DNA from: Candidatus Woesearchaeota archaeon B3_Woes
GTDB lineage: Archaea > Nanobdellota > Nanobdellia > Woesearchaeales > B3-WOES
DNA length: 64,000 nt
Assembly: GCA_005222965.1 (NCBI GenBank)
Contig: NJBG01000001.1
Coordinates: forward strand, 270,323 to 334,322
Direction: 5' to 3'
The notes beneath the pieces are model-generated. The model did not search any database. It was given only the letters and a program-made list of their open reading frames with translations, and was not told the origin of the DNA. The position numbers and the translations under genes were made by a program. Shown piece by piece: positions 3,223 through 37,636 of this stretch. How positions within the stretch are numbered: the stretch's first letter is position 1; every line of letters starts with the position of its first letter.

Positions 3223-4374
3223 CTAGCTATTTGAAACACATTCTTCTCTAATATTGGTATCACTTATATATTCACAATAATCATTATTAGAGTTGATTAC
3301 AGCCATACATAAATTATAATAATCAGTTTTTAAACCACCACATACTGCACCACTATAACTTCTACCCCCTAATGAAACATAAACATCTTTAAAACAATCT
3401 ACAGTTTTATATTTAACAAAACCAGATTTAGTACAAAGTTCATAATCTCCTTTAGTAACAGCAACATTTCGATAACAATCATCAGGTTCATCATCTGCTT
3501 GATCACTTATTTTCTCGCATATTTTCTCATTTTTTAGAGATATTGCAACTGTTTTAACACACCTATCTATCAAAGTGGTGGTATATGTCATAAGTCTTTC
3601 TTTTGTTTCATTAATCTCATCACAAACTTCATAATCTTCATATTTAATTGCAGCATCTGTTAAACAAATCTCTATTATATCAAGATGTTCTTCTTTACAA
3701 TCTGCTACTGCTTCATCTTTTGTCATATCACAATCAACAGAACAAGCACTATAATTCTCTCCTTCTTCACAAACACCATTTCCACAACAAGGATTTATTG
3801 GTTTCTTACTACAATTTCCCAAAGAAAAATCATAATAATCTTCTGTACATTTATCATTATCATCACAAGTCGGACAATCTTTAGAAGGATATTCTCCTTT
3901 CTCACAAATACCATTGCCTAAACAATTAATTATTTTTATATTTTTACATAAAGAAGTGCTAAAATCATAAATATCTTCAGTACATGCATCATTATCATCA
4001 CAGTTTGGACAATCTCCAGAAGGGTATTCTCCTTCTTCGCATCTTCCGTCACCTAGGCAAGTTACTCTTGTATATTTACAAGAAGGTATACTATAATCAT
4101 AATCATCTCTAGTGCATGAATTATTATCATCACAGTTTGGACAGTCTTCGGAAGGATATTCTCCCTCTTCGCATTTTCCATCACCTATACAAGGCACTAT
4201 TAGTAGATTTATGCACTTAAATTTTGTTTCATCTGCACAAAAATCATCAGTACATTCATCATTATCATCACACGATTTAGGACACTCACGTGAACAACCA
4301 ATTAAAATAAGAAGTATTAAAATAAATATTACAAAAATTATTTTTTGTATACTAAAATATTTCATTAAATTCAT
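3223..4374 (-). CDS. Cysteine-rich repeat secreted lipoprotein
   Basis: Signal peptide ending LILIGC; about four CDDNxxCTxD...CxGxGxCEEGEYPSxDCPxC repeats; C-terminal helical Cys repeats. The start may be 4365. Confidence 0.75.
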   Translation of the reverse strand: MNLMKYFSIQKIIFVIFILILLILIGCSRECPKSCDDNDECTDDFCADETKFKCINLLIVPCIGDGKCEEGEYPSEDCPNCDDNNSCTRDDYDYSIPSCKYTRVTCLGDGRCEEGEYPSGDCPNCDDNDACTEDIYDFSTSLCKNIKIINCLGNGICEKGEYPSKDCPTCDDNDKCTEDYYDFSLGNCSKKPINPCCGNGVCEEGENYSACSVDCDMTKDEAVADCKEEHLDIIEICLTDAAIKYEDYEVCDEINETKERLMTYTTTLIDRCVKTVAISLKNEKICEKISDQADDEPDDCYRNVAVTKGDYELCTKSGFVKYKTVDCFKDVYVSLGGRSYSGAVCGGLKTDYYNLCMAVINSNNDYCEYISDTNIREECVSNS

Positions 4375-7494: not shown

Positions 7495-7624
7495 GGCCCC
7501 GTAGCCTAGCCTGGATAAGGCGACAGAAAATAATTAAATTTATTTTTCGCTAGAGCCTTCTAAGCTTTTGCTAAGAAGAAGCCAGGAAAGCTGTAGACCG
7601 AGGGTTCAAATCCCTCCGGGGCCA
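7495..7624 (+). tRNA. tRNA-Arg(UCU) with two introns (28/29: 7525-7553; 37/38: 7563-7588)
   Basis: GGCCCCG/CGGGGCC acceptor stem. Removing both segments restores ACAGC-CT-TCT-AA-GCTGT, and both junctions fit relaxed BHB motifs. Confidence 0.88.
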
Positions 7625-7849: not shown

Positions 7850-7976
7850 CTTTATATACTATTTTATCTGAATATCAGATAAAATAGTTGAAAGTTCAAA
7901 TAAAGAGCTAAAATTCATACAAAAACAAGGATATTCCATATATTATACATTCAGATGTTTTATCTGAATATCAGAA
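7850..7976 (+). promoter_or_regulatory. TATA box plus two copies of a palindromic operator
   Basis: ctttatatact is followed directly by the perfect inverted repeat attttatctga-ata-tcagataaaat (7861-7885). The 18-mer ttttatctgaatatcaga recurs at 7958-7975, just before the ATG. Confidence 0.8.
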
Positions 7977-7980
7977 TAAC

Positions 7981-8271
7981 ATGAAAAAGTATCCAAAAAT
8001 CGTACAATGTGATAAGAGGGGTCAGATAGTAATACCCAAAGATATAAGGAGGGACCTAAAAATTGATGAAGGTACAGGTTTTTGGATGTATTCTGTCACA
8101 AACGAAGGAATTCTTCTCAAAAAAATTGATATTCTGCCATTAGACGAAAATGAAGAGATGTTAGATGAAATCGAATCAAAATCAGACAAACTAAAAATCA
8201 AAAAATCAAATGTTTCAAACTCAGTTAAAAAATACAAAAAAACAAAAGATGGAAATTTAGAAGTAATATGA
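7981..8271 (+). CDS. AbrB/MazE/SpoVT-family DNA-binding protein
   Basis: DKRGQIVIPKDIRRDLKIDEG...GILLKK. Confidence 0.9.
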   Translation: MKKYPKIVQCDKRGQIVIPKDIRRDLKIDEGTGFWMYSVTNEGILLKKIDILPLDENEEMLDEIESKSDKLKIKKSNVSNSVKKYKKTKDGNLEVI

Positions 8272-11200
8272 AGAAGTCAAACGCTAAAATAAGAATTGTA
8301 CCGATTTTCCTAATAATTGCAGTTCTTCTATCACTAACTATCTCCTCTGAATTAAATAGAGAAATAACCATAAAACTTGAATTTAGTAATTCAACAAATT
8401 ATGATTTAGATAATGATGGTATAGAAACAACAAGAGGGGTTGTAGATTTAACAGTTGAAAACACAGAATTTAATTGGAATGTCGATCAAACAAAACTTTT
8501 AACAAAATGGACAATTACTAATGAAGATACTTTAACTACCACTGATATTTGCTATGGAAACGAACAAGGATGTGCATTTATTGATTTAGTAAGTTCATCA
8601 AAAAAATGGAATGATTTATTCTATGTAAACTATGGTAAAGATGGTGCTGGTTACAATAATATAGTATCAACTAAAATCATTTATTATGATGTTGATATAT
8701 CTACTAACCTAGTAGAAATCTATAATTCAAAAGAAGTTGAAAAAGATGTTAAATTTTATGAAGATGTTTCTACTTCATTATCTGACTTAAAAGTTATTGT
8801 TAAAGATAAACAAAAAAGAAGTATTGGACATCACAAAATCACAAAAAACAAAGGGGATTATGATTTAGTAATATCTAACAAAAAACCATCATTAGGACTA
8901 AGAACAGCTTCATCAACACAAGAAACATCTTTAAAACCAGAATCAAAAGTTAAAATAAACAAAATAAGAAAGATAGAAAATGTAGAAGCTATAATAGACG
9001 ATCCATCTGAAAAAGAGATTACAACAGATATAATAGCAATTAATGCTTATACTTTAGAATTTGAAAATGCAGAAATAACCCTAGCAAAACAAAGTGATGT
9101 TAGTGTAATTATGCGTTGTGAAAACTTTGACTTTGAAAATTCTGTTTGTGAAGATTGGCAGCCAACAAACATTCAATTTACAGATGATGGAGATGTAATT
9201 AGATTTAATGTTACTGGATTTAGTGCTTATGGTGGAGGAAATATAACAATCTTAAATGTTCATAGCTACCCTCCGTTATATGGAAACTGGACTGTTAGGT
9301 TTAACACAACAGGTAAAGCAGACTTAACAATCAGAGCTGTAAACGGAACAACCTGGACCAACATATACGATGTTGGTTCTGGTTATGATCTTAAATTCCT
9401 AGAATTCAAATGCGGAGATGAAATATTAAATTATGACTGGGTAAATGATTCAATAGTTATTCAAAATTATTCTTGTCCTGAACTTAGTTATGAAACCCAA
9501 AAAGAATTAACAACAGGAGAACATATATTAGAATTTACATATGGCAACCAAAAAGCTTTTGCTTATAATAATGTTTCAGAAGTAAGTTTTACTCCTGCGT
9601 CTGATGTTTATATTGGTGAGGCTCTTCAAGTTGATTATCAAGGAGATGATGAGTGTGCAGATGTAACTCTAGATCCTGAAGGAGCGTGTGCTGCCGACCC
9701 TGTTAGTGCTTGTACTGTCGCTCTAGTTACAACTCCTGATCTCCTTCCTGGTGTGTGTACTGTTATATATTATGATACAGATGACTCGGGTAGCGAATCA
9801 ATTAGTATTGGAAGAAGGGTGATGACGCTTACAGCAGGTTCTAATCCTCTTGAATTGGGTTCTTCTACTACTGTAACTACAGCAGATCCTGATGCTTATT
9901 GTGTATGGTCAGATTCAAATTGTACTACGCCCACTGTTCTTAGTAATTATCCAACAGATGGTACTTGTACTTGGACCATAACAGCAAACCAAGTTGAATT
10001 GGATACTTGCAGTATTAATGTTAGTGATTATTATGATTATGCTGCTAATGATTCTTTCATACTTCAAATTAGAGATACAACATCACCATTAAACGATATG
10101 TCAATAAATGCTTATGATACTCCAGGAGATCAATGGGAAGACGGAATAACTATAAATTGGAATTTATCATCTTCTTCTGATGTTTATAATTATATTCTTA
10201 GAATATCTAATGGTTCTGCATCAAATGGTATGGAGATTTTAAACACAACAGATACTTCTCAAACTAGTTTTACTAACCTTGTTAATCGTACTAATAGGAC
10301 TGAAGTAAATTATTATTATAGTATCCAGGCTTGTGATATTTATAGTAATTGTAATACTGAATTATGGACAGGTCCAGTTAATATAAACGCACAACCAATT
10401 CAAAACTTAACAAAAATAACAAATATGGCTGGAAATAACACACAAGAAAAAGAAGATAGTATAACAACAGATATAGCAGGGAACACATCAGATACGTGTG
10501 ATGAGGACGCTTTAACAAAAATAACACAACCTTTATACCAATGGTGCGCTCCAGATGAATATAAGATATGTATAGATGCTTTTAGTAATGTAACAGATAA
10601 TTATTCAAGAACTATTACATGTAATATAGCTGAAGTTAATACTACAACATCAAATGATCTAAAATGTGTTGGAATAGCTTATGACAGAGATCTTGAAGAA
10701 GTAACAATGGATTATAATATTACTATTCTTGAAACTTATGCAAGAGGGAGTACTTCTTTTTTAAGTGGTACAGCTACGGATTGTATTTACCATTCTGAAG
10801 ATGTGTTTGGATGGCAGAATAGGTATGATTTACCAGCTGGATCTACTTACTGTTTTGTAGATATTCCTTCTAGTGACACGAGTAAAGGAGATAAAATTAT
10901 TTGTACTATGACCCCTTATGATACAAAAGAATATGGAGATAGTATGCACAGCAATACTACTTATGTAAGAAACACAGCACCATCTTCATATGCAGGAGAT
11001 ATAACACCTTCTGCTCCAAATGAATCTTCTACACTCACTTGTAATTATATCTTTACAGATATTGATACTGATGAAGAAAATGTTTCTGAAGCACAATACG
11101 AATGGTGGATACAAAATGAGGGAGATCCACTTAATGACTTTATAAAAATACCTGACCCATATAATGAATCAACTCTATCATCAATATTTGATAAAGATGA

Positions 11201-14200
11201 TATTATAAAGTGTTCAGTAAAAGTAAAAGATATAGATGAGGGTTGGCTTAACAGACCATTATTTGATGACCATTATGTCAATTCATCATCAACAGTCACA
11301 ATAATAGACAACGCAAAACCACAAATAATAGATTTTAATGATACTTCTAATATAACAATTCCAACAACATTAGGAGAAATTGTACAATTTGATGTAAAAT
11401 GGGTTGATTATGAAGACCCAGGAGAAAGCGCACAGATGTATGTATGTGATAGTACAATAGATCAACAATCAATGGGTGTTATCGGAACAACTAATTATAC
11501 AATGATAGGATGGAATAATCTAAATAACAGTATGGCGAATATGACTTATTACGCTAACTCATCAGGAGATTATGTTGAAACAATAGCAATAAGACCAGAT
11601 AGTTTTACTAACGCTACTGATGGAGACAGGAATGCAAAGGGCTCTACATGGGGAGATACAACAGATTATGTATATGATTTATATGCTTTTGAAGTAGATG
11701 AAATAGGAGATAGAATTAATACTAGTGGTCAAGGTGCTTTACAACCAATTGCTGAAGATCATAATAACGCATTTGTAATGGGAAGTTATAATTATATTAA
11801 ACTACAATATAATTCACAACCATTGCCAAATAAAATAATAGCTATTTTAATGTGTATTGATCCTGATGATACTAACAATTTATATTGTGAGGGGAGTAGT
11901 AGTAATTTGCAATCTTTACAGATTAATGCTACTTCAGCGACTACTAGTGATTATTATATAAATGTTAGTAATGGTACAGGTGGGACTGGAAATATAGGTA
12001 AGTTATACAAAGAGGCAGATATAAAAATAAATTATAAATCAGTTTCTAATGGAAGTACAAGTAACACTGGTTGTGTAGGTACTGAATATTGTCATACAGA
12101 TCTTTCAACTGATAATACAGTCTCATGTAATTATACCACGTTAGAAACAGATTCTAATGGATCTAATACTTATTATACAAAAGCATGTGATGATGGGGAT
12201 GCTTGTTCTGTTTATAGACAAGGAACCTTCTTTGTAAATGAAAAACCTGAAATGAATTGGACAAATTTAACAACAACAGATAACACAGAATACTTTAACT
12301 TCACAAATGATGCACATCTTAATTGTTCATATGACTGGGCATATGATGAATGGAAGAAGAATTCGAGGTTTAACTTTACATTTAAATGGTATTTAAATAG
12401 AGGAGGAGTCTTTACTCTCTATAATACTCTGTCTAATCAATCAAACTTAACTAGTGGAAACACACAAGAAGGAGATCAGTGGATTTGTGAAGTTACACCA
12501 AATGATGGGTTTGTTGATGGAATACCAAAGAATTCTAGTATTAGATCAATTGGAGGAAGTGGTTCTCAAGGAGATGGAACTCCAGAAATATTAAGTGTAA
12601 TAGATAATTCAAATTTGACTAATCCTACTACTGCTGGAGAGAATATAACATTTGAAATAACATGGACTGATTCAAATTCATCACAGATTTATGTATATAT
12701 TTGTAATTCAACAGGTGTAAGTGTAACAGGATGTACTGATGCTTTTTATTGGAAAGAGATACATACACTTACTTCAGATAATCCAGTTAATGTAACTTTT
12801 GTAGCAAACGAAAGTTGGAGTACAACACCACAACCAAATCAAACAGCAAATATCTATATTTATGATGAGACTTGGTTAGCTTCTCCAGTTTATAAGGAAA
12901 ACTTTACAATAAATATTAAGCCTGAAATGAATTGGACAAATTTAACACCAGAAGCACGTAATGATTCTGAGTCTATAATTGATAGTGATTATCTCAATTG
13001 TACATATGAAAGAGCGTATGATATATGGAATGGGTCAGCATTCACATTTACATATAAATGGTATTATAATAGAACAGGTTCATTTGAATTATTTAATATA
13101 CCATCAGAAACATCTATAATAGCATCTAACAACACTCAAAATGGTGATCAATGGATTTGTGAAGTTACACCAAATGATGGGTTTGTTGATGGAACATCAA
13201 TGAATTCTTCAACTAGGTCTATTGGCACTAGTATTGGTAGAACAGATGGAATTCCAGAAATTATAAATATAATAGACAATTCAAATACAAGCTATCCTAC
13301 TCAAAATGGGTCTAGTATAACATTTGAGATAAATTGGACAGATTCAAATTCATCAACACTTAATGGAGTTTATATATGTAACTCAACAGATGTTAACCCA
13401 TCAGGATGTCTTGGTTATGAATTTGGAAGAGCAACAAATACTTCAGATAATCCATTATCTATTACATTCACATATAATCAAAGTGTTAATACAACTTATG
13501 TTTATATTTATGATAATACAAATATAAACTCCTCAGTTTATACAGAGAATTTTACAATAAACTATCCACCAGAATTAAATTGGGTAAATTTAACAACAAC
13601 AAACAACACAGGCGGAGGATTCCTTAATTTCACAGATGATGCTAATCTTAATTGTACACATAATGCTTCAAGTGATTCATTGACAAATGGAAGTATTGAC
13701 TATACTTATAAATGGTATAGAGATAGAACAGGAACTTTTACATTTTTTAGTACTCCATCTACTCAACAAGTGGTAAGTAATGGTGAAACAGAACCAGGAG
13801 ACCAATGGATTTGTGAAGTTACACCAAATGATGGATTTATTGATGGAACACCAACAAACTCTAGCTCTAGAATTATAGAAGGTAGTACGTCAACAGATGG
13901 GATTCCAGATATTACAAATGTTATAGATAATTCAAACTATTCAGATCCAACTACTGAAGGAGCTAGTATAAACTTCCAGATATATTGGACAGATTCAAAT
14001 TCATCAATCCTTAATAATGTATTTATTTGTAATACATCGGATGTTAATCCAACAGGGTGTCTTGGTTATAAATTTGGAGAAGCAACATCAACTTCATCTA
14101 ATCCAGTATCTATTACATTTATTGCAAATGAAAGTTGGGAGACAAACCAATCAACTTATATATACCTTTATGATGATACAGGTATAAATTCTTCAGTTTA

Positions 14201-17200
14201 TAAGGAAAACTTTTCAGTAAATCACAGACCTAATGCAACAATTTCAGTAGATTATATAAGTTCAAGTTCATTACAATGTAAAATATCCGCTTTTGTAGAT
14301 GAGGATGGGGATGATATAAATAATAGTCTTAGTGAATTTAGATGGTGGCTAAATGATACTTTACAAGCTACAACAACTGAAAATCTAACATATGTAGAGA
14401 TTCCAGAGAATACATTCAAATGTGCTGCTAGAATTTATGATAATCGTAGTTTATCATCATTAGATTATATTGAATCAATTGATTTCTATGGAACAGATAT
14501 CATAATAGCCCCAATTGTACAAAGTCTTCCAGAAGCAGTTTCATCAATACCAATATACATAACAGGTTATATAAATAAAAGTAATAAAAATTTGAATACA
14601 ACAGCAATTGCATTACAAGAGTATGGAGCACCTTTTGTTACTACAACAAATAGTTTAACAGGCAATTCAACACTTAATGGAAGTACTATATCTGCTGATA
14701 ATTTTGCTGCTGGACTTAATTATACAGCTGTTTATGATGGAGAAGAATCTATTTTTAGTGCAAATCACTACATACGATTTGCAAATCATGATAGGCACTC
14801 TTTCCTTAGATACAATATAACAAGCAAGGTGGATTTATTTGGAAAATGGAAAATAAATTTAAATGAAAGCTTAACATCATCAGTATCAAAATTTGAAGAA
14901 ATATATGTATATAATAGTTCAAAACCAACAGGGTGGTTCAATATATCATTAAATTTATTCCAAGGAGACAATGAAATAAAAGTAAAAGGGTATGAAAATG
15001 TTTCACAAAATGTTACACTAACAGGTATAGCAACAACATTTAATATATACTTTGATAATCAAACACCTCAAATAAATATATCTCTTATACAATTATCATC
15101 AAATGATAACATACATACAATAAATTTCAGAGTAACAGACGACTTTAAAATAAATCTTTCAACATTGCTTCTTAATATAACAAATGGAACATATAATGTG
15201 ACTCATAGGTATGATTCATTAATATACTATAACGAATCATGGAATTGGGGTAATAATATAAATTGTAGTGGAAACAACACCCTCAAAGACTGTAATGTAA
15301 CATTAAATCTAGAAGATGGAAATTACACTATGACTCTTTCAGTAAATGACTCAGTAAATAATCAAAATATTACTACAATAACAACATACTTAATTGATTC
15401 AACTAAACCAACAGCTCCATCTGTTTATGCAAAGGCAATACAAAATTCAACAAACCTTTCATTAGTTTGGAAAAGTCCATCTAGTAACATGGTATCTGCT
15501 CAATACTCTGTTGGAACAGACAAATATCCTAACAGTGGATGGTATTCAGTAATTAATTGGACAAACGTATCAGAAAACACATCTTATAAGATGATTGACT
15601 CAAATAATAATAATTATCATGATGATAATGAAACCATTATAATTTCAGCAGATTATAATTTAAGTAGTGATGATATTGTCAATAGAACCGGTTATGCTGC
15701 TTTAAATAATTTCTTAAATGGAACTGAAATGTTTAATGATTCAAATAATAATCATCTTTTTGAGAGTAATGATTGGATTGTTTATGACAGTGATAGTGAT
15801 GGTATCTATAATAACGTAAGTGATACAATTCTTTATGGAAATAATTCTCTTCCAAATGGATCTACTCTTTTAAATTTCACAATTAATATTACATATTCTG
15901 ATGAGAACCAAGATAGTAATTATAGTGTTGGTGAAGCAATTGTTATGGACAATAACACAAACTTAGAATTAGATGTTGGTCTATTAAATGGTTCAGGAAA
16001 CGACACAGTTATTGTAAATGGTACAGCAGATATGTTTAATCCATTAAAAACAGTTAATTTGAGTTTAATAAATCATAATTTCTATTATGTAAATGTTCGT
16101 TATAAGAATGATGAAAATCTTTTCTATAGTTTAGTTGGATCTTCGCTTATAATTAAATATAAAACAACAACAAGTGGCACAACAGAACAACAAGACAACT
16201 ACACTGGTCCTTCCGCTGTGATTGTATATGCTACTGCACAATCTGCTACAAGAAACCTAACTGCTAATTGGACAGAAAGCATAGATGATAGATATAATAT
16301 TTCATACTATCAATATTCTATTGGTACAGCAAAATACCCTTCTTCTGGTTGGAATTCAATAGTTACATGGACAAATAATAGTGTAAACAGAACAGCAACT
16401 TACAATAGCAGCGAATATACAGACGGAACATATTATTACTGGAATATTAAAGCCATTAATGAGATTGGCAACGAAAGTAATGTAAATTCTAGTGAAGGTA
16501 CTCTTTTCCACGATCAAATTCCACCAATTTTAACTTTACTACAGGTAGCAAATGACACAAATGGTTCAGATGGGTGGTTAGATAATTTAAATGATAATTC
16601 AACAGAAATAAGAGTACAAGGCGACGAAAATATGACTTGTTTTGTGTCACCATATGATAAATGGTATACTGATTATAACTCTGATGATGATGTGTGGTGT
16701 GCGCCAAATTCATCAATCAATATGACTTGTAATATAACAGACGTAAACGTTGCTGAAGTAGATAATTATACTTATCATATTGTATGTAAAGATAATTTAG
16801 ACCTTCCAAATGGACATAATACATCACAAAACCTAGATGTAACATTTGAAGTAGATTGGCCTACTTCACCAGAAGTAAGAAATCTAACAGTATGGATGTA
16901 CTATCCAAATATGACTCTAAGAGGAAATGCAAAAAATCTTTCAAATACCACATACACTAATGAGATTTTAAAATGTAATAGTACTTATTATGATCAAGAC
17001 GGAGATAATTTAACTAATGAAACCTGGGCATGGGCAATCAATGGTACTGTCTATATAGATAATGCAAACACATCTCAATTAAATTTAAGTGTAAATGGTT
17101 CAAAAGGGGACAACATAACATGTTTCTATAATGTAACAGATTCTTCTAATATGACCTCAATAACATATAATTATACAGTTTACATAAATAATACTAAACC

Positions 17201-19583
17201 AACAGTGGATACTCCTTTAATAAACTCTAGTGCTTCAGAAAACAGAAGCAATGAAAGTTTAAATTGTTATGTACAATCAGCATCAGATGATGATAATGAC
17301 ACTCTAAATTACACATATAAATGGTATAAAAACAATATATTAAATACAACAACAGATAACACAAATATATCATATGGTGTTTTGGGTTCTGGAAACACCT
17401 CAAAAGGAGAAAATTGGACATGTAGTGTGATACCTTATGATGGAGAAGAAAATGGTACAGCCAAGAACAGCACACAATTAACAATTGTAAATACTGGACC
17501 AGAATTTAGCGCAACAATAAGTAATATTTCGTGGTCTAAAAATACAGATTATACAATGGACCTAGATAATTATTTCTCAGATATTGATAGTGAGAATTTA
17601 ACATATAATTATACTAGTGTTACAAGTATAACTGTAACCATAAATCAAATCACAAACGTTGTTACACTTACACCAGATAATAACTTTGTAGGAATTAAAT
17701 CTATAAGATTTAATGCTACTGATGGAGAATATTGGACTGGTTACAGTAATCTTGTTACTTTAAACGTAACAAATAGTACTATTAATATTACTCTAAATAG
17801 TCCAGTAAATTATTATAATTCATCAGCTGCTTCGATTAATTTCAACTGTTCAGCTAACATTATTAGTGGAGATAATAATTTAACAAATATAACATTAAAT
17901 ATATGGAATTCATCTGGATTATATTATACAGATACAAATACTTCAATTGGTGCAAATTCAGGAAATTCAACTAACAGTACATTTAATGCTACAATATCAT
18001 CAGATGGAGATTACACATGGAACTGCCAAGCGTGTGACAATGGAAGCGAATGTACATCTGATGAAGAGAGTTATCAATTTACAATGGATACAACATATTC
18101 AATAATAACTTTCTCAAGTGGAACAGAAAACAACTTTACAAACGTTTCAAGAACATGGATTTATGCAGATGTAAATGTAACTGAATTAAATGAAAAGAAT
18201 ATAACATTTAGTTTGTATAATGATACATCTGGTTTAATATTGGATAACACAAGTTATACAACAGCGCAAAGATCTATAAATTGGACAGGATTATCAAATG
18301 GAAGTTATAGTTATAATGTTACTGTATGTGATTATGTTGATTATTGTAATACAACAGAAACCAGATTAATTATTTTAGATACGACTCCACCAGACGAAAT
18401 TACAGGATTGGTAAATACAACACCAACTGAATCATCAATAAATTTAAGTTGGGCTGCTGCAACAGATAGTGGTTCTGGTGTTGCAAAATATCTTGTTTAT
18501 AGGAATGATACAAACATTATTAATACAACTGTAACAACATATAATGATACAACTGTAAATAGTTCAAGTACTTATATATATAACGTATCTGCTATGGATT
18601 ACGCAGGAAATGAAGGTTTACTAGATAATATAACCGCGAACACATCAGCAGATGTTACAGCACCAGTCATAAGTAATATTGCAAATAGCTCTATAACAAC
18701 ATCTGGAGCAACAATCACTTGGTCAACTGATGATTATGCTAATTCCACTGTTTATTATGGAACCAATAGTTCAAATTTAGATTCAACAAGTGGTAGTTCA
18801 ACTCTAACAAAATCTCATTCAATAACGTTAGGATTAGACCCAGGTACAACATATTACTACCAAGTTAATTCATCTAATAGAGAAGGTTGGGCAACAAATT
18901 CTACAATATATAGCTTTACAACAGCATCTAGTGGAGGATCATCCACAGGAGGGGGAGGTGGGGGAGGAACCACCACTATAATTACTTCTTCAGTCGAAGA
19001 AGGAGTAGAAGAACCAAAACCATTAGAAGTAATATATTTACCAAAAACTCCCAAAGAAGAAGAGAAAAAATCTCCACCTAAAAAACCAACACCAAAGCCA
19101 AAAGTTAAAGAAGATATCCCTCCAGAAAAAGAAGGAGATTTACTTACATATGCTATATCAGCGTTCATAACAATTGCATTAATTGGTGGATTGTTTATGA
19201 AAGAGAGAATGAGAATTAACTACATGAACAACCAACCAGAACTAAAACTGCAAGGTTTCATAAAGAAAGCGAAAACAAAAGGATATAAAATAGATGACAT
19301 AAGAAAAATCCTTGTTTCAAAAGGATGGCCTTCACACTTAGTTGACACAGCAGCATTACATGATCCAATATCTGGGCTATTGAAAAAAGGACACAACCAC
19401 ACAATGATAAGAGAAGTACTAAAAAGCAAAGGATTTAGTCAGAAAATAATCGATAATGCAATACTACATAACCACATAAACAAGGAACTTAGGAAGAGAA
19501 GAAGCGTAAAAAGCATAAGAAATGAATTACTCAAAGCAGGATGGACTAAAAAAATAATAGATAAAAAACTTCCTGCTAAATAG
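8268..19583 (+). CDS. Giant (3771 aa) cell-surface glycoprotein with Ig/Fn3-like repeats, C-terminal TM and cytoplasmic tail
   Basis: Signal peptide; very many N-x-S/T sequons; repeated LxC...(F/Y)xWY...GDxWxCxVTPxDG modules; Fn3-like modules; Gly/Pro linker, TM helix and GW/GF helical repeats. Confidence 0.88.
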   Translation: MKKSNAKIRIVPIFLIIAVLLSLTISSELNREITIKLEFSNSTNYDLDNDGIETTRGVVDLTVENTEFNWNVDQTKLLTKWTITNEDTLTTTDICYGNEQGCAFIDLVSSSKKWNDLFYVNYGKDGAGYNNIVSTKIIYYDVDISTNLVEIYNSKEVEKDVKFYEDVSTSLSDLKVIVKDKQKRSIGHHKITKNKGDYDLVISNKKPSLGLRTASSTQETSLKPESKVKINKIRKIENVEAIIDDPSEKEITTDIIAINAYTLEFENAEITLAKQSDVSVIMRCENFDFENSVCEDWQPTNIQFTDDGDVIRFNVTGFSAYGGGNITILNVHSYPPLYGNWTVRFNTTGKADLTIRAVNGTTWTNIYDVGSGYDLKFLEFKCGDEILNYDWVNDSIVIQNYSCPELSYETQKELTTGEHILEFTYGNQKAFAYNNVSEVSFTPASDVYIGEALQVDYQGDDECADVTLDPEGACAADPVSACTVALVTTPDLLPGVCTVIYYDTDDSGSESISIGRRVMTLTAGSNPLELGSSTTVTTADPDAYCVWSDSNCTTPTVLSNYPTDGTCTWTITANQVELDTCSINVSDYYDYAANDSFILQIRDTTSPLNDMSINAYDTPGDQWEDGITINWNLSSSSDVYNYILRISNGSASNGMEILNTTDTSQTSFTNLVNRTNRTEVNYYYSIQACDIYSNCNTELWTGPVNINAQPIQNLTKITNMAGNNTQEKEDSITTDIAGNTSDTCDEDALTKITQPLYQWCAPDEYKICIDAFSNVTDNYSRTITCNIAEVNTTTSNDLKCVGIAYDRDLEEVTMDYNITILETYARGSTSFLSGTATDCIYHSEDVFGWQNRYDLPAGSTYCFVDIPSSDTSKGDKIICTMTPYDTKEYGDSMHSNTTYVRNTAPSSYAGDITPSAPNESSTLTCNYIFTDIDTDEENVSEAQYEWWIQNEGDPLNDFIKIPDPYNESTLSSIFDKDDIIKCSVKVKDIDEGWLNRPLFDDHYVNSSSTVTIIDNAKPQIIDFNDTSNITIPTTLGEIVQFDVKWVDYEDPGESAQMYVCDSTIDQQSMGVIGTTNYTMIGWNNLNNSMANMTYYANSSGDYVETIAIRPDSFTNATDGDRNAKGSTWGDTTDYVYDLYAFEVDEIGDRINTSGQGALQPIAEDHNNAFVMGSYNYIKLQYNSQPLPNKIIAILMCIDPDDTNNLYCEGSSSNLQSLQINATSATTSDYYINVSNGTGGTGNIGKLYKEADIKINYKSVSNGSTSNTGCVGTEYCHTDLSTDNTVSCNYTTLETDSNGSNTYYTKACDDGDACSVYRQGTFFVNEKPEMNWTNLTTTDNTEYFNFTNDAHLNCSYDWAYDEWKKNSRFNFTFKWYLNRGGVFTLYNTLSNQSNLTSGNTQEGDQWICEVTPNDGFVDGIPKNSSIRSIGGSGSQGDGTPEILSVIDNSNLTNPTTAGENITFEITWTDSNSSQIYVYICNSTGVSVTGCTDAFYWKEIHTLTSDNPVNVTFVANESWSTTPQPNQTANIYIYDETWLASPVYKENFTINIKPEMNWTNLTPEARNDSESIIDSDYLNCTYERAYDIWNGSAFTFTYKWYYNRTGSFELFNIPSETSIIASNNTQNGDQWICEVTPNDGFVDGTSMNSSTRSIGTSIGRTDGIPEIINIIDNSNTSYPTQNGSSITFEINWTDSNSSTLNGVYICNSTDVNPSGCLGYEFGRATNTSDNPLSITFTYNQSVNTTYVYIYDNTNINSSVYTENFTINYPPELNWVNLTTTNNTGGGFLNFTDDANLNCTHNASSDSLTNGSIDYTYKWYRDRTGTFTFFSTPSTQQVVSNGETEPGDQWICEVTPNDGFIDGTPTNSSSRIIEGSTSTDGIPDITNVIDNSNYSDPTTEGASINFQIYWTDSNSSILNNVFICNTSDVNPTGCLGYKFGEATSTSSNPVSITFIANESWETNQSTYIYLYDDTGINSSVYKENFSVNHRPNATISVDYISSSSLQCKISAFVDEDGDDINNSLSEFRWWLNDTLQATTTENLTYVEIPENTFKCAARIYDNRSLSSLDYIESIDFYGTDIIIAPIVQSLPEAVSSIPIYITGYINKSNKNLNTTAIALQEYGAPFVTTTNSLTGNSTLNGSTISADNFAAGLNYTAVYDGEESIFSANHYIRFANHDRHSFLRYNITSKVDLFGKWKINLNESLTSSVSKFEEIYVYNSSKPTGWFNISLNLFQGDNEIKVKGYENVSQNVTLTGIATTFNIYFDNQTPQINISLIQLSSNDNIHTINFRVTDDFKINLSTLLLNITNGTYNVTHRYDSLIYYNESWNWGNNINCSGNNTLKDCNVTLNLEDGNYTMTLSVNDSVNNQNITTITTYLIDSTKPTAPSVYAKAIQNSTNLSLVWKSPSSNMVSAQYSVGTDKYPNSGWYSVINWTNVSENTSYKMIDSNNNNYHDDNETIIISADYNLSSDDIVNRTGYAALNNFLNGTEMFNDSNNNHLFESNDWIVYDSDSDGIYNNVSDTILYGNNSLPNGSTLLNFTINITYSDENQDSNYSVGEAIVMDNNTNLELDVGLLNGSGNDTVIVNGTADMFNPLKTVNLSLINHNFYYVNVRYKNDENLFYSLVGSSLIIKYKTTTSGTTEQQDNYTGPSAVIVYATAQSATRNLTANWTESIDDRYNISYYQYSIGTAKYPSSGWNSIVTWTNNSVNRTATYNSSEYTDGTYYYWNIKAINEIGNESNVNSSEGTLFHDQIPPILTLLQVANDTNGSDGWLDNLNDNSTEIRVQGDENMTCFVSPYDKWYTDYNSDDDVWCAPNSSINMTCNITDVNVAEVDNYTYHIVCKDNLDLPNGHNTSQNLDVTFEVDWPTSPEVRNLTVWMYYPNMTLRGNAKNLSNTTYTNEILKCNSTYYDQDGDNLTNETWAWAINGTVYIDNANTSQLNLSVNGSKGDNITCFYNVTDSSNMTSITYNYTVYINNTKPTVDTPLINSSASENRSNESLNCYVQSASDDDNDTLNYTYKWYKNNILNTTTDNTNISYGVLGSGNTSKGENWTCSVIPYDGEENGTAKNSTQLTIVNTGPEFSATISNISWSKNTDYTMDLDNYFSDIDSENLTYNYTSVTSITVTINQITNVVTLTPDNNFVGIKSIRFNATDGEYWTGYSNLVTLNVTNSTINITLNSPVNYYNSSAASINFNCSANIISGDNNLTNITLNIWNSSGLYYTDTNTSIGANSGNSTNSTFNATISSDGDYTWNCQACDNGSECTSDEESYQFTMDTTYSIITFSSGTENNFTNVSRTWIYADVNVTELNEKNITFSLYNDTSGLILDNTSYTTAQRSINWTGLSNGSYSYNVTVCDYVDYCNTTETRLIILDTTPPDEITGLVNTTPTESSINLSWAAATDSGSGVAKYLVYRNDTNIINTTVTTYNDTTVNSSSTYIYNVSAMDYAGNEGLLDNITANTSADVTAPVISNIANSSITTSGATITWSTDDYANSTVYYGTNSSNLDSTSGSSTLTKSHSITLGLDPGTTYYYQVNSSNREGWATNSTIYSFTTASSGGSSTGGGGGGGTTTIITSSVEEGVEEPKPLEVIYLPKTPKEEEKKSPPKKPTPKPKVKEDIPPEKEGDLLTYAISAFITIALIGGLFMKERMRINYMNNQPELKLQGFIKKAKTKGYKIDDIRKILVSKGWPSHLVDTAALHDPISGLLKKGHNHTMIREVLKSKGFSQKIIDNAILHNHINKELRKRRSVKSIRNELLKAGWTKKIIDKKLPAK
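12230..14230 (+). repeat. Three tandem intragenic copies of a two-domain module (spacing ~650-670 bp)
   Basis: tggatttgtgaagttacaccaaatgatgg at ~12480, ~13152 and ~13807; WTDSNSS and YICN motifs in each copy. Confidence 0.85.
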
Positions 19584-19618: not shown

Positions 19619-20395
19619 ATGGCAAAAATATTGTTCAAAAAAGAAAAAAAAGAGTTTGTCAAGGATTTAAACAAAGAGATAACCCTCTCCAGACAAAGAT
19701 TCTTCTATGTTTTTGATACTGATAAGGAGTTTATAACAGAAGATGGCAAAATAGATAAAAAAGACCTAAAGAAAAAAGATGGAAGCACCATAAAAACTAA
19801 TAAAGATAAAGAATTTATTATATTCTCAACAACTTTTATAGACGATTTCAAAAGGATTAAAAGAAAAGCTCAAATAATAACACCAAAAGACATTGGAATT
19901 ATAATAGCTGAAACAGGCATTAACAATAAAAGTAAAGTTGTTGATGCTGGTACTGGCTCTGGGGCTTTAGCTTGTTATTTAGCTCATATATGTAAAGAAG
20001 TTACAAGTTATGATATAAGAGATGATTCAATAGAAACAGCTAAAGAGAATAAAAAATTCTTAGACTTAAAAAATTTAAAAATAAAGAAGAAAAGCATCTT
20101 TAAAGGAATTGATGAAAAAGAGTTAGACTTAATTGTTCTAGATATACCAGATCCATGGAATGCAATAAAATCTTGTGAAAAATCACTAAAAATTGCAGGA
20201 TACCTTGTTGTATACCTTCCTTCAGTTTCTCAAATATCTGATTTTGTAAATGAAATAAAAAAATATAATGGTTTTGTCTATCTAAAAACAACTGAATTAA
20301 TCGAAAGACACTGGAAGATTGATGGAAGAATTTCAAGACCAAAATCAGGAGCACTAGGCCATACAGGATTCTTAAGTTTTGTTAGAAGAATTTAG
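19619..20395 (+). CDS. trmI: tRNA (adenine57/58-N1)-methyltransferase
   Basis: QIITPKD, VVDAGTGSGAL, LDIPDPW, GHTGFL. Confidence 0.92.
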   Translation: MAKILFKKEKKEFVKDLNKEITLSRQRFFYVFDTDKEFITEDGKIDKKDLKKKDGSTIKTNKDKEFIIFSTTFIDDFKRIKRKAQIITPKDIGIIIAETGINNKSKVVDAGTGSGALACYLAHICKEVTSYDIRDDSIETAKENKKFLDLKNLKIKKKSIFKGIDEKELDLIVLDIPDPWNAIKSCEKSLKIAGYLVVYLPSVSQISDFVNEIKKYNGFVYLKTTELIERHWKIDGRISRPKSGALGHTGFLSFVRRI

Positions 20396-21802: not shown

Positions 21803-22269
21803 TCAAAAATTATACTAAAAACAAATTCATTTTCATTTTTATAAAAATGTTCTTTTAGTACTGTTTCGTGTTTAAATCCTAATTTTTCATAAAAAGCATG
21901 AGATTCTTTATTTGTTGATCTTGTTAACAGAAATACTTTTCTTACATTTGCATCATGTTTTTTATATTCCTCCTCAATATCTTTCATCATTGATTCAAAT
22001 AATTTTTTTCCTGTTCCTTTTCCTCTTGCTCCTTTTAAAGTTACAATATGGTATAACTCCACTAATCCGTGTTTTGGTCTTCCATGCATAATCCATGATA
22101 CTAGTCCTATTATTTTTCCGTTTTCTTCTGCGACAATGTAATTATCTCCTTTATTTATTTCTTTTAAAAAAGATTGTTCTGCCTCTTCTATCTTATCAAC
22201 ATTCAATAGTTCTAATAATACTTCTGCAACCTTTTCTTTGTCCTCTGTTGTTGCTTTTCTTAATATCAT
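21799..22269 (-). CDS. GNAT N-acetyltransferase
   Basis: LRKAT, RGKGTGKKL acetyl-CoA loop, N...FYEKLGF; ATGA overlaps with both neighbours. Confidence 0.88.
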   Translation of the reverse strand: MILRKATTEDKEKVAEVLLELLNVDKIEEAEQSFLKEINKGDNYIVAEENGKIIGLVSWIMHGRPKHGLVELYHIVTLKGARGKGTGKKLFESMMKDIEEEYKKHDANVRKVFLLTRSTNKESHAFYEKLGFKHETVLKEHFYKNENEFVFSIIFE

Positions 22270-24083
22270 TCTACTGTAACTGATTTTGCTAAGTTTTTTG
22301 GTTTATCTATATCACATTCTCTTAGTTTAGCAATATGATAAGCTAATAATTGTAAAGGAACTACTGTTAAAAAAGGATACAATAATCCAGATGTCTCTGG
22401 AACATATAAAACATGATCTGATATTTTCTTTATTTCTTCATCTCCTTCAGTAGCAATAGATATTATTATTCCTCCTCTTGATTTTATCTCTTCCATATTT
22501 CCTTTTATTTTAACATAAGATTCATCTTTAACACATATTACTACAACAGGCATTTGATTATCTACCAAAGCAATTGGACCATGTTTCATTTCAGCTGCAG
22601 GATACCCCTCTGCATGAAGATAAGAAACCTCTTTTAATTTTAAAGCACCTTCTAAAGCTATTGGAAAGTTTGTTCCTCTTCCAAGATAGATTGCGTTTGT
22701 TTTACGATAATAATCTTTAGCACAATCCATTATCTCTTTATCTTTTTTCAACATAGATTCTATTTGTTCTGGGATTCTCTTCAAATAATCTAATCTCTCA
22801 ATAAGATGTTCTTCAGGCCATGTACCTCTTAATTGAGCAAGATAAACACCCAATAAATATAAAACAGATAATTGTGTTGTAAATGCTTTTGTCGAAGCAA
22901 CACCAATTTCAATACCTGCTCTTGTATAGATGGTTTCGTCAGCTTCTCTTGGAATAGAACTTCCAATAACATTACAAATAGAAAGAACAGTTGCTCCTTT
23001 TGATTTTGCTTCTTTCATAGCTGCTAATGTATCTGCTGTTTCTCCTGATTGGCTTATGGCAATAACTAATGTCTTGTCATCTAAGATTGGATTTCTATAC
23101 CTAAACTCAGATGCATAATCAACTTCTACTGGAATTTTTCCTAAAGATTCTAATATTAATTTGCCGACTAACCCTGCATGCCAAGATGTCCCACATGCAA
23201 CAATCATAATTCTATTTATTGATTTTAAATAATCGTCAGTTAATTTAAAATCTTCAAAAAAAACTTTGTTGTCTTTAATCCTAGAAGTTATTGTATTTTC
23301 AATTGCAACTGGCTGTTCAAATATTTCCTTTAACATAAAATGTTCAAATTCTCCTTTTTGTGCCTGCTCTGCATCCCAATCTATTTCCACTTGATTCTTT
23401 TTAAATTCCTTTCCTGTTTCAATATTTTTTATTTTATATTCATCATTTATAACAACCATTTCGTTATCCTCTAAGAAAATAACTTTTTTTGTATATTCGA
23501 GAAAAGCAGGAACATCTGATGCAATAAAAAATTCTTTTTCTCCAATACCTAGAACCAAAGGGGAAGCTTTTCTTGCTGCAATAATCTTATCAGAATCATT
23601 ATTAATAACAATTATTGCATATGTTCCTTCTAATTTTTTTAATACTAAAGTTACTGCTTCTTCAAACTCATTATTTTTAGCATATTCTTCTATTAAATGA
23701 GGAATTACTTCTGTATCTGTTTTAGAATTAAACTCATAACCTTTTTCTATTAGCTCATTTTTTAATTCTTCATAATTTTCAATAATACCATTATGAACAA
23801 CAGCTATTTTCTTATTTGATGAAATATGTGGATGAGCATTTTTTTCAGTTACTGTTCCATGAGTAGCCCATCTTGTATGCCCCATTGCAATATTTGCGCT
23901 TTTTATTTCAGAAAAATCATTATACTCTCCTATCTTCCCAATTTTTTTTATTATTTCTAACCTATCTTTGTATTTGGATGCAATTCCCCATGAATCATAA
24001 CCTCTGTATTCTAATTGTTTTAGGCCTTTTATGATTATCTTGTTTCCGTCGTTTGGTCCTTTATAACAGATTATCCCGCACAT
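22266..24083 (-). CDS. glmS: Glutamine--fructose-6-phosphate transaminase (isomerizing)
   Basis: True start MCGII at 24083; LEYRGYDS, GHTRWATHG, SQSGETADT, KPKNLAKSVTVE. Confidence 0.97.
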   Translation of the reverse strand: MCGIICYKGPNDGNKIIIKGLKQLEYRGYDSWGIASKYKDRLEIIKKIGKIGEYNDFSEIKSANIAMGHTRWATHGTVTEKNAHPHISSNKKIAVVHNGIIENYEELKNELIEKGYEFNSKTDTEVIPHLIEEYAKNNEFEEAVTLVLKKLEGTYAIIVINNDSDKIIAARKASPLVLGIGEKEFFIASDVPAFLEYTKKVIFLEDNEMVVINDEYKIKNIETGKEFKKNQVEIDWDAEQAQKGEFEHFMLKEIFEQPVAIENTITSRIKDNKVFFEDFKLTDDYLKSINRIMIVACGTSWHAGLVGKLILESLGKIPVEVDYASEFRYRNPILDDKTLVIAISQSGETADTLAAMKEAKSKGATVLSICNVIGSSIPREADETIYTRAGIEIGVASTKAFTTQLSVLYLLGVYLAQLRGTWPEEHLIERLDYLKRIPEQIESMLKKDKEIMDCAKDYYRKTNAIYLGRGTNFPIALEGALKLKEVSYLHAEGYPAAEMKHGPIALVDNQMPVVVICVKDESYVKIKGNMEEIKSRGGIIISIATEGDEEIKKISDHVLYVPETSGLLYPFLTVVPLQLLAYHIAKLRECDIDKPKNLAKSVTVE

Positions 24084-24124
24084 GATATTAAAGAACAAAA
24101 TAAAGGTATATAAGCATTATGAAA

Positions 24125-25876: not shown

Positions 25877-25924
25877 ATTACTTATTTCTCTATAGAGATT
25901 TAAATAAGTTTGTGTTTTTAGAAT

Positions 25925-29611: not shown

Positions 29612-29633
29612 TTTCTATTTCCTCCATTAAATT

Positions 29634-31490: not shown

Positions 31491-31492
31491 TT

Positions 31493-32596
31493 TTATGCTG
31501 CCATCTCTATTACCCCATAAGGTTTAAGTGCATCTACTATCTCTGCTCTAGCATCTCCTATTTCAGGAACAGGTTCTCCTGTTATTTTTTCTGCTAATCC
31601 TTTATATAATGCACTTGTTTCCATAAACACACTATCAGGAACTCTATAAGATTCTGCAAGTTGTGTTCTCTCATCCATTCTACTTTTATTTACTAAAACA
31701 TCTCTATCAGGTACACTAGCCTGAAGAGCTTCCCTAAACATTTCTTTAGATTCTTCTACTGTTTGACCTCGTTGATATAACTCCTTATCCCAATATCTTG
31801 AAGAATCTGGTGTTCCAATTTCATCAATATAAATCAATTGTTGTTGACCATCAACTAAAACATAACCAAACTCAAATTTAGTATCAACAAAAACTTTTCC
31901 AACAGCATCAAGTTCTCTATCTATTAAACTAAATCCTTCTGTTAATAATCTCTCATATAATTCTACATCTGCTTGTGATTTAAATCCAAACGCAGTATAG
32001 TTATCTAAAATTTGTTGTCTTGTTACATTAACATCATCTACTTCTGGTACACCAGGTATTCCTCTAAGAAGCCCTTTGGTAGAAGGTGTAATTAATAATT
32101 GGTCTAATCTTTGATCTTTCTTTAAACCTTCCGGAACAGATATACCACAAATTTCTCTATCTCCTTTTTCATAACCTCTCCACATACTTCCTGTAATATA
32201 TTGTCTTGCAATCGCTTCAACCATAACTGGTTCTGCTCTTTGAACAATCCAAACTAAAGGATGAGGTGTAGCTACAATATGATTTCCTGCTAATCCTTCT
32301 TGTTCAAATCTTTCGAACCAATGTTTTGATATTGCATTCAAAGATGCTCCTTTTCCAGGAATACCTTTTAACCCACTTTCAGTTTCCCATGTAAATTCAT
32401 AAGCAGATATTCTGTCACTAATAACTAGGGCGCCCAATTCTGGATTAGATCCACTAAAACCAGTTTGTTCTGCTACTCTTTGACTATCTTCTTGACTAAA
32501 CCAATAAGCAGATCTCACCTTTCCGTCATGTACATCTCCTTGGTGTCTTATTGGTAAATCATTTGTTTTAACAATTGCTAAATTTTCTACAGACAT
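31493..32596 (-). CDS. purC: SAICAR synthetase, long (Vibrio-like) type
   Basis: DLPIR...HDGKVRS.YW, ISDRISA, DTKFEFG, DEIGTPDSSRYW. Confidence 0.93.
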   Translation of the reverse strand: MSVENLAIVKTNDLPIRHQGDVHDGKVRSAYWFSQEDSQRVAEQTGFSGSNPELGALVISDRISAYEFTWETESGLKGIPGKGASLNAISKHWFERFEQEGLAGNHIVATPHPLVWIVQRAEPVMVEAIARQYITGSMWRGYEKGDREICGISVPEGLKKDQRLDQLLITPSTKGLLRGIPGVPEVDDVNVTRQQILDNYTAFGFKSQADVELYERLLTEGFSLIDRELDAVGKVFVDTKFEFGYVLVDGQQQLIYIDEIGTPDSSRYWDKELYQRGQTVEESKEMFREALQASVPDRDVLVNKSRMDERTQLAESYRVPDSVFMETSALYKGLAEKITGEPVPEIGDARAEIVDALKPYGVIEMAA

Positions 32597-32635
32597 TTTT
32601 TACATCCTCCATTTATTTATTTTTTAATGATTAAT

Positions 32636-34006: not shown

Positions 34007-34016
34007 TTTAATCCTC

Positions 34017-34568: not shown

Positions 34569-34580
34569 TTTATTTACCTC

Positions 34581-36757: not shown

Positions 36758-36768
36758 TTTAATTCCTC

Positions 36769-37635: not shown

Positions 37636-37636
37636 C

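Follow-up and report, generated by a model that had tools for sequence, protein, structure and literature searches.

Regulators of the AbrB/MazE fold that repress their own promoters are well known. AbrB has an N-terminal DNA-binding part and a C-terminal domain that makes tetramers, and the archaeal repressors MDR1, Phr and LrpA have operators between the TATA box and the start site. The accessible part of PMC3025583 describes AbrB of Bacillus subtilis as a global regulator with hundreds of bound sites, and that of 10.1101/2024.08.12.607668 describes cooperative binding at multiple sites. The type II antitoxins MazE and VapB, as presented in the accessible portions of PMC4333400 and PMC5389673, come from operons whose small first gene is closely joined to its neighbour and whose promoter is overlaid by palindromic operators. 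Here we describe two loci in a 64,000-nucleotide (nt) stretch of the genome of Candidatus Woesearchaeota archaeon B3_Woes, where a small AbrB/MazE-fold gene stands directly ahead of the gene for a giant protein. The whole stretch (G000:C1:270323-334322; genome of 1,021,708 bases, 4 contigs, 30% G+C) is called the window. We consider it likely that the loci are two self-contained operons, each with an AbrB/MazE-fold protein that binds its own pair of palindromes and feeds back on itself and on the giant. What we observe is the fold family, a conserved linkage, and operators that are conserved, mutually exclusive and regularly placed; from this we infer that the two proteins bind the operators and repress, and that regulator and giant are co-transcribed.

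At locus 1, the regulator AbrB1 (P0001, 96 amino acids (aa)) is encoded at 7981-8271 on the plus strand. It consists of an N-terminal AbrB/SpoVT-type domain and two C-terminal helices. Giant 1 (3771 aa) follows at 8268-19583 on the same strand, and its start overlaps the AbrB1 stop in the sequence ATGA. At locus 2, AbrB2 (P0002, 52 aa; 56358-56516, plus strand) is an AbrB/MazE-fold domain alone. The frame of giant 2 (56503-64000, plus strand) is open from 56503 and runs beyond the window end to the equivalent of 68790; in the genome it has 4095 codons from stop to stop. The start codon of giant 2 is uncertain. The earliest ATG, GTG or TTG, at 56587, sits within a predicted N-terminal membrane helix, and the start is therefore probably a non-canonical codon, ATA at 56527 or 56542, or ATT at 56545. 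The giant of L063, an orthologue from the same family, starts upstream of that helix. An AbrB-like gene at another place in the genome (locus B, C1:932770-932840) also has no ATG, GTG or TTG at the point where its protein has to begin; there, a GGTG motif of Shine-Dalgarno type is followed 8 nt later by an ATA. Together, giant 2 and this gene suggest that ATA/ATT initiation occurs in the organism.

The two promoters share the 14-mer CTTTATATACTATT, at 7850-7863 and 56291-56304, and these are its two copies in the genome. Inside it lies a predicted TATA box of consensus archaeal type, TTTATATA, at 7851-7858 in locus 1 and at 56292-56299 in locus 2, both on the plus strand. Locus 1 has a predicted operator O1 of AbrB1 at 7858-7888. 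It holds a perfect palindrome, ATTTTATCTGA-ATA-TCAGATAAAAT, at 7861-7885, with arms that reach 14+3+14 nt at 7858-7888 and a core, TCTGAATATCAGA, at 7867-7879. The predicted operator O2 (7958-7979), 96 bp from O1, includes an 18-nt copy, TTTTATCTGAATATCAGA, of the left part and core of O1 at 7958-7975, 5 nt ahead of the ATG at 7981. Its symmetry is limited to the 13-nt core TCTGAATATCAGA at 7963-7975. In locus 2 the predicted operator O1' of AbrB2 (56302-56313, ATTAGTACTAAT, core TTAGTACTAA at 56303-56312) abuts the TATA box, and the predicted operator O2' (56344-56359, ATATTAGTACTAATAT) overlaps the ATG at 56358, 44 bp from O1'. In what follows, TCTGA-N3-TCAGA is called motif 1 and TTAGTACTAA motif 2.

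Much of this had been pointed out in an earlier reading of the window from the letters alone, here called the sequence-only reading. It had described the shared promoter stretch, which is present at both loci as the 14-mer, and had stated that the palindromes and the regulators differ between the loci, as motif 1 with AbrB1 and motif 2 with AbrB2 bear out. Its description of a perfect palindrome after the TATA box that recurs at the start codon is right for the first site, and wrong for locus 1 in that the recurrence there is imperfect. Translational adjacency of regulator and giant, claimed for both loci, is seen in the ATGA overlap at locus 1 and is only plausible at locus 2, given the uncertain start of giant 2. 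We rejected the 14-mer as a signature of the module. Orthologous promoters diverge right after TTTATATA, and we read the 14-mer mostly as a consensus TATA box that by chance runs into the opening bases of the two operators.

Both regulators pass the Pfam cut-off for PF04014 (24.7 bits), AbrB1 with 27.5 bits and AbrB2 with 25.9 bits. AbrB1 is also above the cut-off for NCBIfam TIGR01439 (36.1 bits; cut-off 28.3). A profile of 27 AbrB1 sequences matched the N-domains of SpoVT and AbrB in the PDB with E 1.2e-5 to 3.5e-5 over residues 7-50. The AlphaFold2 model of AbrB1 (predicted local distance difference test, pLDDT, 73) has a strand at 6-9, a helix at 20-25, strands at 33-39 and 43-48, and helices at 54-66 and 75-86. 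In Foldseek, SpoVT and AbrB were the top rows for this monomer model (template modelling score, TM, 0.34 over 96 aa; all E >= 0.2). Weak E values are expected here, because the model is a monomer of an obligate intertwined dimer. The AbrB2 model (AlphaFold2, pLDDT 84) has strands at 3-7, 10-14, 30-35 and 41-46 and a helix at 17-23. It superposes on E. coli MazE with TM 0.75-0.77 and a root mean square deviation of 1.5 A over 47-49 columns, on SpoVT with TM 0.69, and also on the Sulfolobus AbrB-like protein 5itm and on AbrB.

AbrB1 and AbrB2 have no detectable likeness in BLASTP (E 0.061); compared profile to profile, their families are related (78%, E 1.8e-5). The C-terminal helical half of AbrB1 is conserved in type-1 loci, that is, those of AbrB1 and its orthologues, and Y85 is invariant in the A1 alignment. 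This half could multimerise or sense a partner, and AbrB2 has no counterpart of it. Separately, the profile of the AbrB2 family (A3) resembles the blades of PVL-type fungal lectins, with a whole-chain E of 1.4e-7 and no single significant stretch. The likeness comes through a shared GW…RF[VI].DL.G motif and is probably convergence.

The genome holds 20 frames with 1000 codons or more, and none of the others is as large as the two giants. Giant 1 has a signal or anchor helix at residues 5-30 and one membrane helix at 3625-3645, followed by a cytoplasmic tail of 126 aa. Giant 2 has an N-terminal anchor helix and about eight hydrophobic segments in its last 530 aa. The density of N-X-S/T sequons is 6.05 per 100 aa in giant 1 and 5.10 in giant 2, and 0.53 in a rough six-frame background of the genome. 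The two proteins are alike over an N-terminal region (37% identity and E 2.8e-22 for residues 32-167 against 112-248), for which the best domain match was ChiC with E 0.13, and they have one internal module in common. In Pfam, giant 1 matched 0 families at E <= 0.01 and giant 2 gave a Big_13 match alone, below threshold; no adhesion domain was found in the giants. That they are membrane-anchored surface proteins is well supported, and the label adhesin is unproven.

The cytoplasmic tail of giant 1 (19203-19580, plus strand) contains three repeats of about 30 aa with the pattern KG[YF]..I...L...GW....[IV]D. In eight other genomes, the giants behind AbrB1 orthologues also finish in these GW repeats, with 1-5 copies of the helical repeat in the type-1 tails (L043, L044, L046, L047 and L051-L054). 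The repeat belongs to no named family among those searched; a match to RecX_HTH1 reached 23.1 bits and is under the cut-off of 26.

We searched P0001 against 201 genomes of the same order, including its own; the relatives carry the titles Woesearchaeota or Nanoarchaeota. We found 27 full-length orthologues in 27 other genomes of many families, with 43-75% identity and no stops. One of these genomes, G132, is unpublished and is the source of loci L021 and L048. Flanks were read over 1.5 kb and then up to 20 kb, and the lengths given for downstream ORFs (open reading frames) are those of stop-to-stop frames. The AbrB1 orthologue directly precedes a large secreted ORF in 21 of the 27 loci. In 13 loci this ORF has at least 2000 aa (2895, 3978, 4069, 4042, 3315, 3460, 2000, 5420, 4592, 3637, 3756 and 2413, and at least 3252 in the thirteenth, which ends at a contig end). 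In a further five it is cut by the contig end at 588, 1621, 957, 1559 and 1055 aa, and in three it has 701, 702 and 836 aa; these three belong to the most divergent AbrB1 orthologues.

Six of the 27 loci are without a long downstream ORF (L016, L019, L024, L031, L033 and L034). In two of these six, from genomes G083 and G176, the full-length AbrB1 gene directly follows a giant of 6028 or 5874 aa (L111, G083:C9:123000-142900; L112, G176:C1:159300-178700). The order in this variant architecture is a TATA box with two of the same operators, an AbrB1 paralogue of 47-48 aa that has the N-domain only, a giant with a GW tail, the full-length AbrB1, a second pair of operators 103 bp apart, and the next gene. 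Large or giant secreted ORFs are thus touched by 23 of the 27 type-1 loci. In a sample of 301 genomes of the phylum, of which the share of other orders is unstated, AbrB1 matches at E <= 1e-15 came from 29 other genomes, all of the same order.

In the window, giant 1 is followed after 35 nt by a gene for a GCD14/TrmI-type tRNA (transfer RNA) methyltransferase (19619-20395, plus strand; PF08704, 67.3 bits), which may be co-transcribed with it. A TrmI homologue stands after the large downstream ORF or ORFs in 9 of the 21 extended type-1 loci, and it is also the gene behind the second operator pair in G176. In L019, L031 and L039 it directly follows the AbrB1 relative, with no giant between them. 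This hints that the giant gene has been gained and lost between two fixed neighbours.

Type-2 loci were defined by close relatives of P0002 (48-84% identity) in the same genome sample, and 29 non-self loci were examined. In eight, the next frame has at least 1000 aa (1382, 1147, 4588 and 4173, and at least 1171, 1749, 1202 and 6581). It has 511-716 aa in seven, and in three the contig ends with fewer than 200 aa visible. In two type-2 loci whose first ORF is mid-sized, a longer frame in the same direction (2705 or 3100 aa) comes later. The tie to giants is looser than in type 1. From these gene orders, type 2 appears to head operons for secreted and membrane proteins of many sizes, giants included. 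Tandem AbrB2-type genes, 65-78% identical to P0002, precede a secreted protein of 627-632 aa at G004:C94:236-596 and G138:C87:3227-3536.

The operators are conserved together with the regulators. Motifs were counted over 300 nt ahead of each start codon, with the locus of the window and two short relatives included. Type-1 promoters have motif 1 exactly in 26/30 and with at most one mismatch in 30/30, and type-2 promoters have motif 2 exactly in 18/30 and with at most one mismatch in 25/30. There is no crossover: motif 2 was found in 0/30 type-1 promoters and motif 1 in 0/30 type-2 promoters, both exactly and with at most one mismatch. A second sample, of species-representative genomes, overlaps the first and gave 52 loci with full-length AbrB1 matches; the records that hold these matches are titled mostly Candidatus Woesearchaeota, Nanoarchaeota, Nanoarchaeia or Nanobdellota archaeon, with deviating titles such as 'uncultured Methanosarcinales' and one 'Alphaproteobacteria'. 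Here motif 1 occurs exactly in 37/52 loci and with at most one mismatch in 51/52; as a control, the same DNA read backwards gave 0/52. Two or more motif-1 sites are present in 40/52.

Genome-wide, TCTGAWWWTCAGA has 115 sites in 75 of the 201 genomes, and a backwards control has 18 sites in 17 genomes; these tallies take in the unpublished genomes G132, G183 and G112. Of the 27 genomes with a full-length AbrB1 orthologue, 24 contain it (49 sites). In the B3_Woes genome of 1.02 Mb, TCTGA-N3-TCAGA occurs twice, both times in the AbrB1 promoter, and 50 block shuffles of the genome gave a mean of 0.82 and a maximum of 3. Taken with the rarity of the 14-mer and of motif 2 and with the size rank of the giants, we regard the pattern as going beyond chance. 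Of the three copies of TTAGTACTAA in the genome, two are in the AbrB2 promoter and none in the AbrB1 promoter. The third, at C1:106013, lies right after a TATA-like box, TTTATAGA, in an intergenic gap of 430 nt with no ORF of 80 aa or more downstream. It may mark a further AbrB2 target, a small gene or an RNA.

Thus the operators lie in the promoter of the regulator's own gene and are conserved together with it, as would be expected of an autoregulated operon. The sequence-only reading had named non-conservation of the regulator-giant linkage in other genomes as an outcome that would speak against it; the linkage is kept in 23 of 27 type-1 loci. Orthologous promoters also keep the palindromes it had pointed to, and the lack of any crossover bears out the co-variation of regulator and operator that it had proposed to look for. 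Its view of the two modules as orthogonal agrees with the same counts and with the window, where neither promoter has the other's operator. The exclusivity is directly testable, because the window carries both regulator/operator families. A toggle between the surface proteins was considered and rejected: with no cross-operators in either promoter and no crossover among the relatives, each module is insulated from the other, and the pair lacks the wiring of a toggle.

In archaea transcription starts roughly 25 nt after the TATA box. In type 1, the distance from the TTTAWAWA box to the operator centre is 19-38 nt in 23/28 promoters, in clusters of 19-24 and 27-38 nt. In type 2, the operator centre lies 10-18 nt after the first TTTAWAWA base in 12 promoters and at most 38 nt after it in 17/30. 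By this measure O1 of type 2 would lie between the TATA box and the expected start, and O1 of type 1 between them or over the start. Many type-1 orthologues have a second site adjacent to the start codon, and in 10 type-2 loci (our own and 9 orthologues) its centre is 3-6 nt before the ATG. Adjacent type-1 sites are spaced by a multiple of 20 bp, give or take 1 bp, in 27/31 cases and in 48/52 of a wider set (15% by chance). For type 2 the unit is 11 bp, with 16/22 spacings no more than 1 bp off a multiple of it (27% by chance), and the 44 bp of locus 2 conform. Phased palindromic operators would fit a dimer or tetramer of the regulator, and such strict helical phasing is a structural prediction in itself.

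We suggest that the two operons work as follows. AbrB1 would recognise TCTGA-N3-TCAGA and AbrB2 TTAGTACTAA. With the first operator between the TATA box and the expected start, the bound regulator would keep RNA polymerase out. A regulator dimer or higher oligomer would bind both this site and the second operator at the start codon, and because the sites share a helix face, it probably occupies them cooperatively. The regulator would shut its own promoter and thereby the giant gene behind it. Such negative autoregulation would cap or steady the output of a costly gene, for each giant independently, and the regulators probably set the amount of the huge surface proteins that is made. Negative feedback would make sense where expression of one gene demands 11-12 kb of transcription and the glycosylation of thousands of residues. 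The sequence-only reading had gone further and proposed switches of the surface repertoire. Nothing supports this part: operators placed downstream of the TATA box predict a negative feedback that steadies expression and does not flip it.

Several points weigh against two dedicated, helically phased AbrB operons. Locus 1, with a spacing of 96 bp, breaks the phasing rule; moreover, the phasing periods were chosen after seeing the data, the related genomes are not independent and the two sets overlap. AbrB2 falls below the TIGR01439 cut-off (16.1 against 28.3 bits), Foldseek E values are above 0.1 for both regulator models (0.12-0.25 for AbrB2), and the best PDB rows of the AbrB2 profile are summed weak matches to lectin propeller blades. 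In 11 of the 29 type-2 loci the regulator precedes an ORF of less than 500 aa, and the type-2 family is therefore not a dedicated regulator of giant genes. The motif TCTGAWWWTCAGA is also present in 50 of the 173 genomes without a full-length AbrB1 (64 sites), many of which hold shorter relatives. Finally, other AbrB-led operons in the genome encode an ABC (ATP-binding cassette) transporter and a MoxR/BatA-type membrane set, so the architecture is general for envelope operons and not special to giants.

This last point can be followed in the genome itself, where PF04014 is found in six places at E < 0.01: the two loci studied here, a 299-aa AbrB-domain protein, a toxin-antitoxin pair, and loci B and F. 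Locus B (about C1:932770-933039, plus strand) heads large membrane-protein genes, and its promoter has TTATTAATATTAA twice, after the TATA box and before the gene. Locus F (C1:679045-679197, minus strand) is an AbrB2 paralogue that heads an ABC-transporter operon with an ATPase and FtsX-type permeases. Small AbrB-fold first genes with private operators are thus a general way in which this lineage heads envelope operons, and the pair of giants are the most striking cases. Eight further ORFs of 1135-1984 aa in the genome have no AbrB gene in the 900 nt upstream. The promoter of the 1135-aa ORF (146473-149880; minus-strand promoter at C1:149880-150080) reads TTTTATATAAGTACTAC, with an AGTACT core that abuts the TATA box and, from its letters, looks like a degenerate AbrB2 operator.

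A more elaborate scheme would let the giant report back from the membrane. The C-terminal half of AbrB1 would dock on the RecX-like GW repeats of the tail, so that the giant would titrate its own repressor at the membrane according to its amount or its state (inserted, loaded or shed). The tail would take the place that the toxin has in the conditional cooperativity of MazEF and VapBC, and AbrB2, without the sensor half, would run the other giant as an insulated second module. The hint comes from the conservation of both the C-terminal half and the tail repeats across type-1 loci, and from the two genomes in which AbrB1 follows the tail-coding end and a sensor-less paralogue heads the operon. 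A complex prediction of two AbrB1 chains with the tail of giant 1 gave a score of 0.01, which is evidence neither for nor against binding. We regard this scheme as speculative and rather unlikely; if true, it would give the cell independently adjustable surface proteins.

It is slightly less probable still that the AbrB-like proteins activate, or act both ways, with the start-codon site recruiting or positioning the transcription machinery. The direction of control is deduced solely from the operator position relative to the predicted start, and 14 of the 23 TATA-proximal sites of type 1, centred 27-38 nt after the TATA box, could lie at or past the start. Archaeal activators usually act upstream of the TATA/BRE (B recognition element) region, however, and no operator was found there. 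The type-2 operators that abut the TATA box (10-18 nt, 12 promoters) are hard to reconcile with polymerase entry. In the accessible parts of the sources, AbrB, SpoVT, MazE and VapB mainly repress the promoters that they overlap.

We give little credence to the idea that some other factor binds the palindromes, or that these are structural promoter elements, while the AbrB-fold proteins chaperone or pilot the giant or are antitoxin-like. The 50 genomes that lack a full-length AbrB1 orthologue and still hold one motif copy or more would fit it. Each motif nevertheless tracks its own regulator family with no crossover, in G083 and G176 a motif pair follows the relocated AbrB1 gene, TCTGA-N3-TCAGA is found nowhere else in its own genome, and the fold of the regulators is a DNA-binding fold.

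Very improbable is a role of the palindromes at the level of the transcript, where hairpins in the leader would govern its translation start or its stability. If transcribed, the extended O1 at locus 1 would fold to -14.9 kcal/mol (z -7.2), and many type-2 loci have a second site that includes part of the start codon. Yet O1 directly adjoins the TATA box and for the most part should not be transcribed, and the palindromes at the start codons form no stable RNA hairpin, folding no better than shuffles (z -1.5 and +1.4). Rfam gave no family in either leader, and both the hairpin and the known-RNA-family explanations of the leaders were rejected. Orthologues conserve the 5-nt half-sites and not the stem length, and the spacing between sites follows the helical repeat of DNA.

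Hardly credible, finally, are degenerate toxin-antitoxin modules that landed by chance beside giant genes: PF04014 is the MazE antitoxin family and the genome has a classic AbrB and RelE-like pair in a HicAB island, but neither locus has a small toxin-like ORF between regulator and giant, as the sequence-only reading had remarked, and the same is true of the orthologous loci, so that a toxin-antitoxin module was rejected; AbrB1 keeps 43-75% identity along its whole length in many families of the order, unlike fast-turnover toxin-antitoxin genes, and its synteny with the giant and TrmI genes is conserved.

Other features of the window can be listed briefly. Upstream of locus 1 is a tRNA-Cys gene that ends at 7706. 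Just upstream of this lies a tRNA-like gene with a long insert at 7495-7624 (plus strand). It has an acceptor/D-arm-like 5' start at about 7495 and a T-arm and acceptor end (…GGTTCAAATCCCTCCGGGGCCA) at about 7601-7624, with about 60 extra bases between. It was called by neither ARAGORN nor Rfam and is probably an intron-containing tRNA. A Lon_C protease-domain protein of 588 aa (54438-56204, minus strand) is divergent from the AbrB2 promoter. Between the modules are housekeeping genes (22266-40816, minus strand) for GlmS-like, ABCE1/RLI-like, GMP synthase, PurH, adenylosuccinate lyase and FGAM synthase proteins, and an archaeal signal recognition particle RNA (50230-50502, minus strand).

Woesearchaeota and other DPANN archaea are uncultured, and the first candidates for mediating their contact with hosts or particles are the giant surface proteins. 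To our knowledge, nothing is known about the control of the genes for these proteins. From the two operons come a pair of concrete cis-regulatory words, TCTGA-N3-TCAGA and TTAGTACTAA. Each goes with a small, easily expressed protein, and the regulation can therefore be tested in vitro without culture. Annotators gain a marker for the main outward-facing gene of each genome. Our literature search, which covered what is available without subscription, found no paper that joins AbrB with Woesearchaeota or describes such an operon. AbrB together with DPANN occurred in PMC6393860 alone, in whose accessible part AbrB is merely an antitoxin abbreviation in a figure legend, and neither AbrB nor DPANN is mentioned in the accessible text of the Brogan & Rudner preprint (10.64898/2026.05.12.724683).

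Among described systems, AbrB and SpoVT of Bacillus subtilis (1z0r, 1yfb, 2w1t), swapped-hairpin regulators of the transition state and of sporulation, gave the best profile rows (E ~1e-5) and Foldseek rows for AbrB1. The modelled AbrB1 also appears to be laid out like AbrB, with 96 aa, an N-terminal DNA-binding half-barrel and a helical C-terminal part. Unlike these proteins, the regulators described here belong to an archaeal host and stand behind a TATA-box promoter, and the GAF domain of SpoVT is absent. Whereas AbrB is a global regulator, each of them appears, judged from its motif, to be dedicated to one promoter with a sharply defined palindrome.

The MazE and VapB antitoxins share PF04014 with both regulators, and the AbrB2 model superposes on E. 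coli MazE. As in their operons, a small first gene is tightly coupled to the next and palindromes lie over the promoter. In contrast to them, there is no toxin, the partner is a secreted membrane protein of 3771 or about 4095 aa, and the sequence of the regulator is conserved across the whole order. Archaeal AbrB-family proteins, Sso7c4 (2l66, 5itj/5itm) and pSSVi C56 and pSSVx C68 (7xi6, 3o27), are among the structural and sequence matches of the regulators. Like AbrB2 they have about 50-60 aa and consist of the AbrB domain alone. They differ in that their PDB titles name histone-like or plasmid proteins, and no twin-operator surface-protein operon is attached to them in the material examined. 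The operator geometry would, by analogy with MDR1, Phr and LrpA, imply blocked recruitment of RNA polymerase, although the protein folds differ. As predicted here, an antitoxin-type AbrB fold would serve a lineage as a dedicated operon regulator without a toxin. What is new relative to all these systems is two order-wide, toxin-less orthologous families with sharply defined, helically phased operators, heading the largest surface-protein genes in Woesearchaeota-type archaea.

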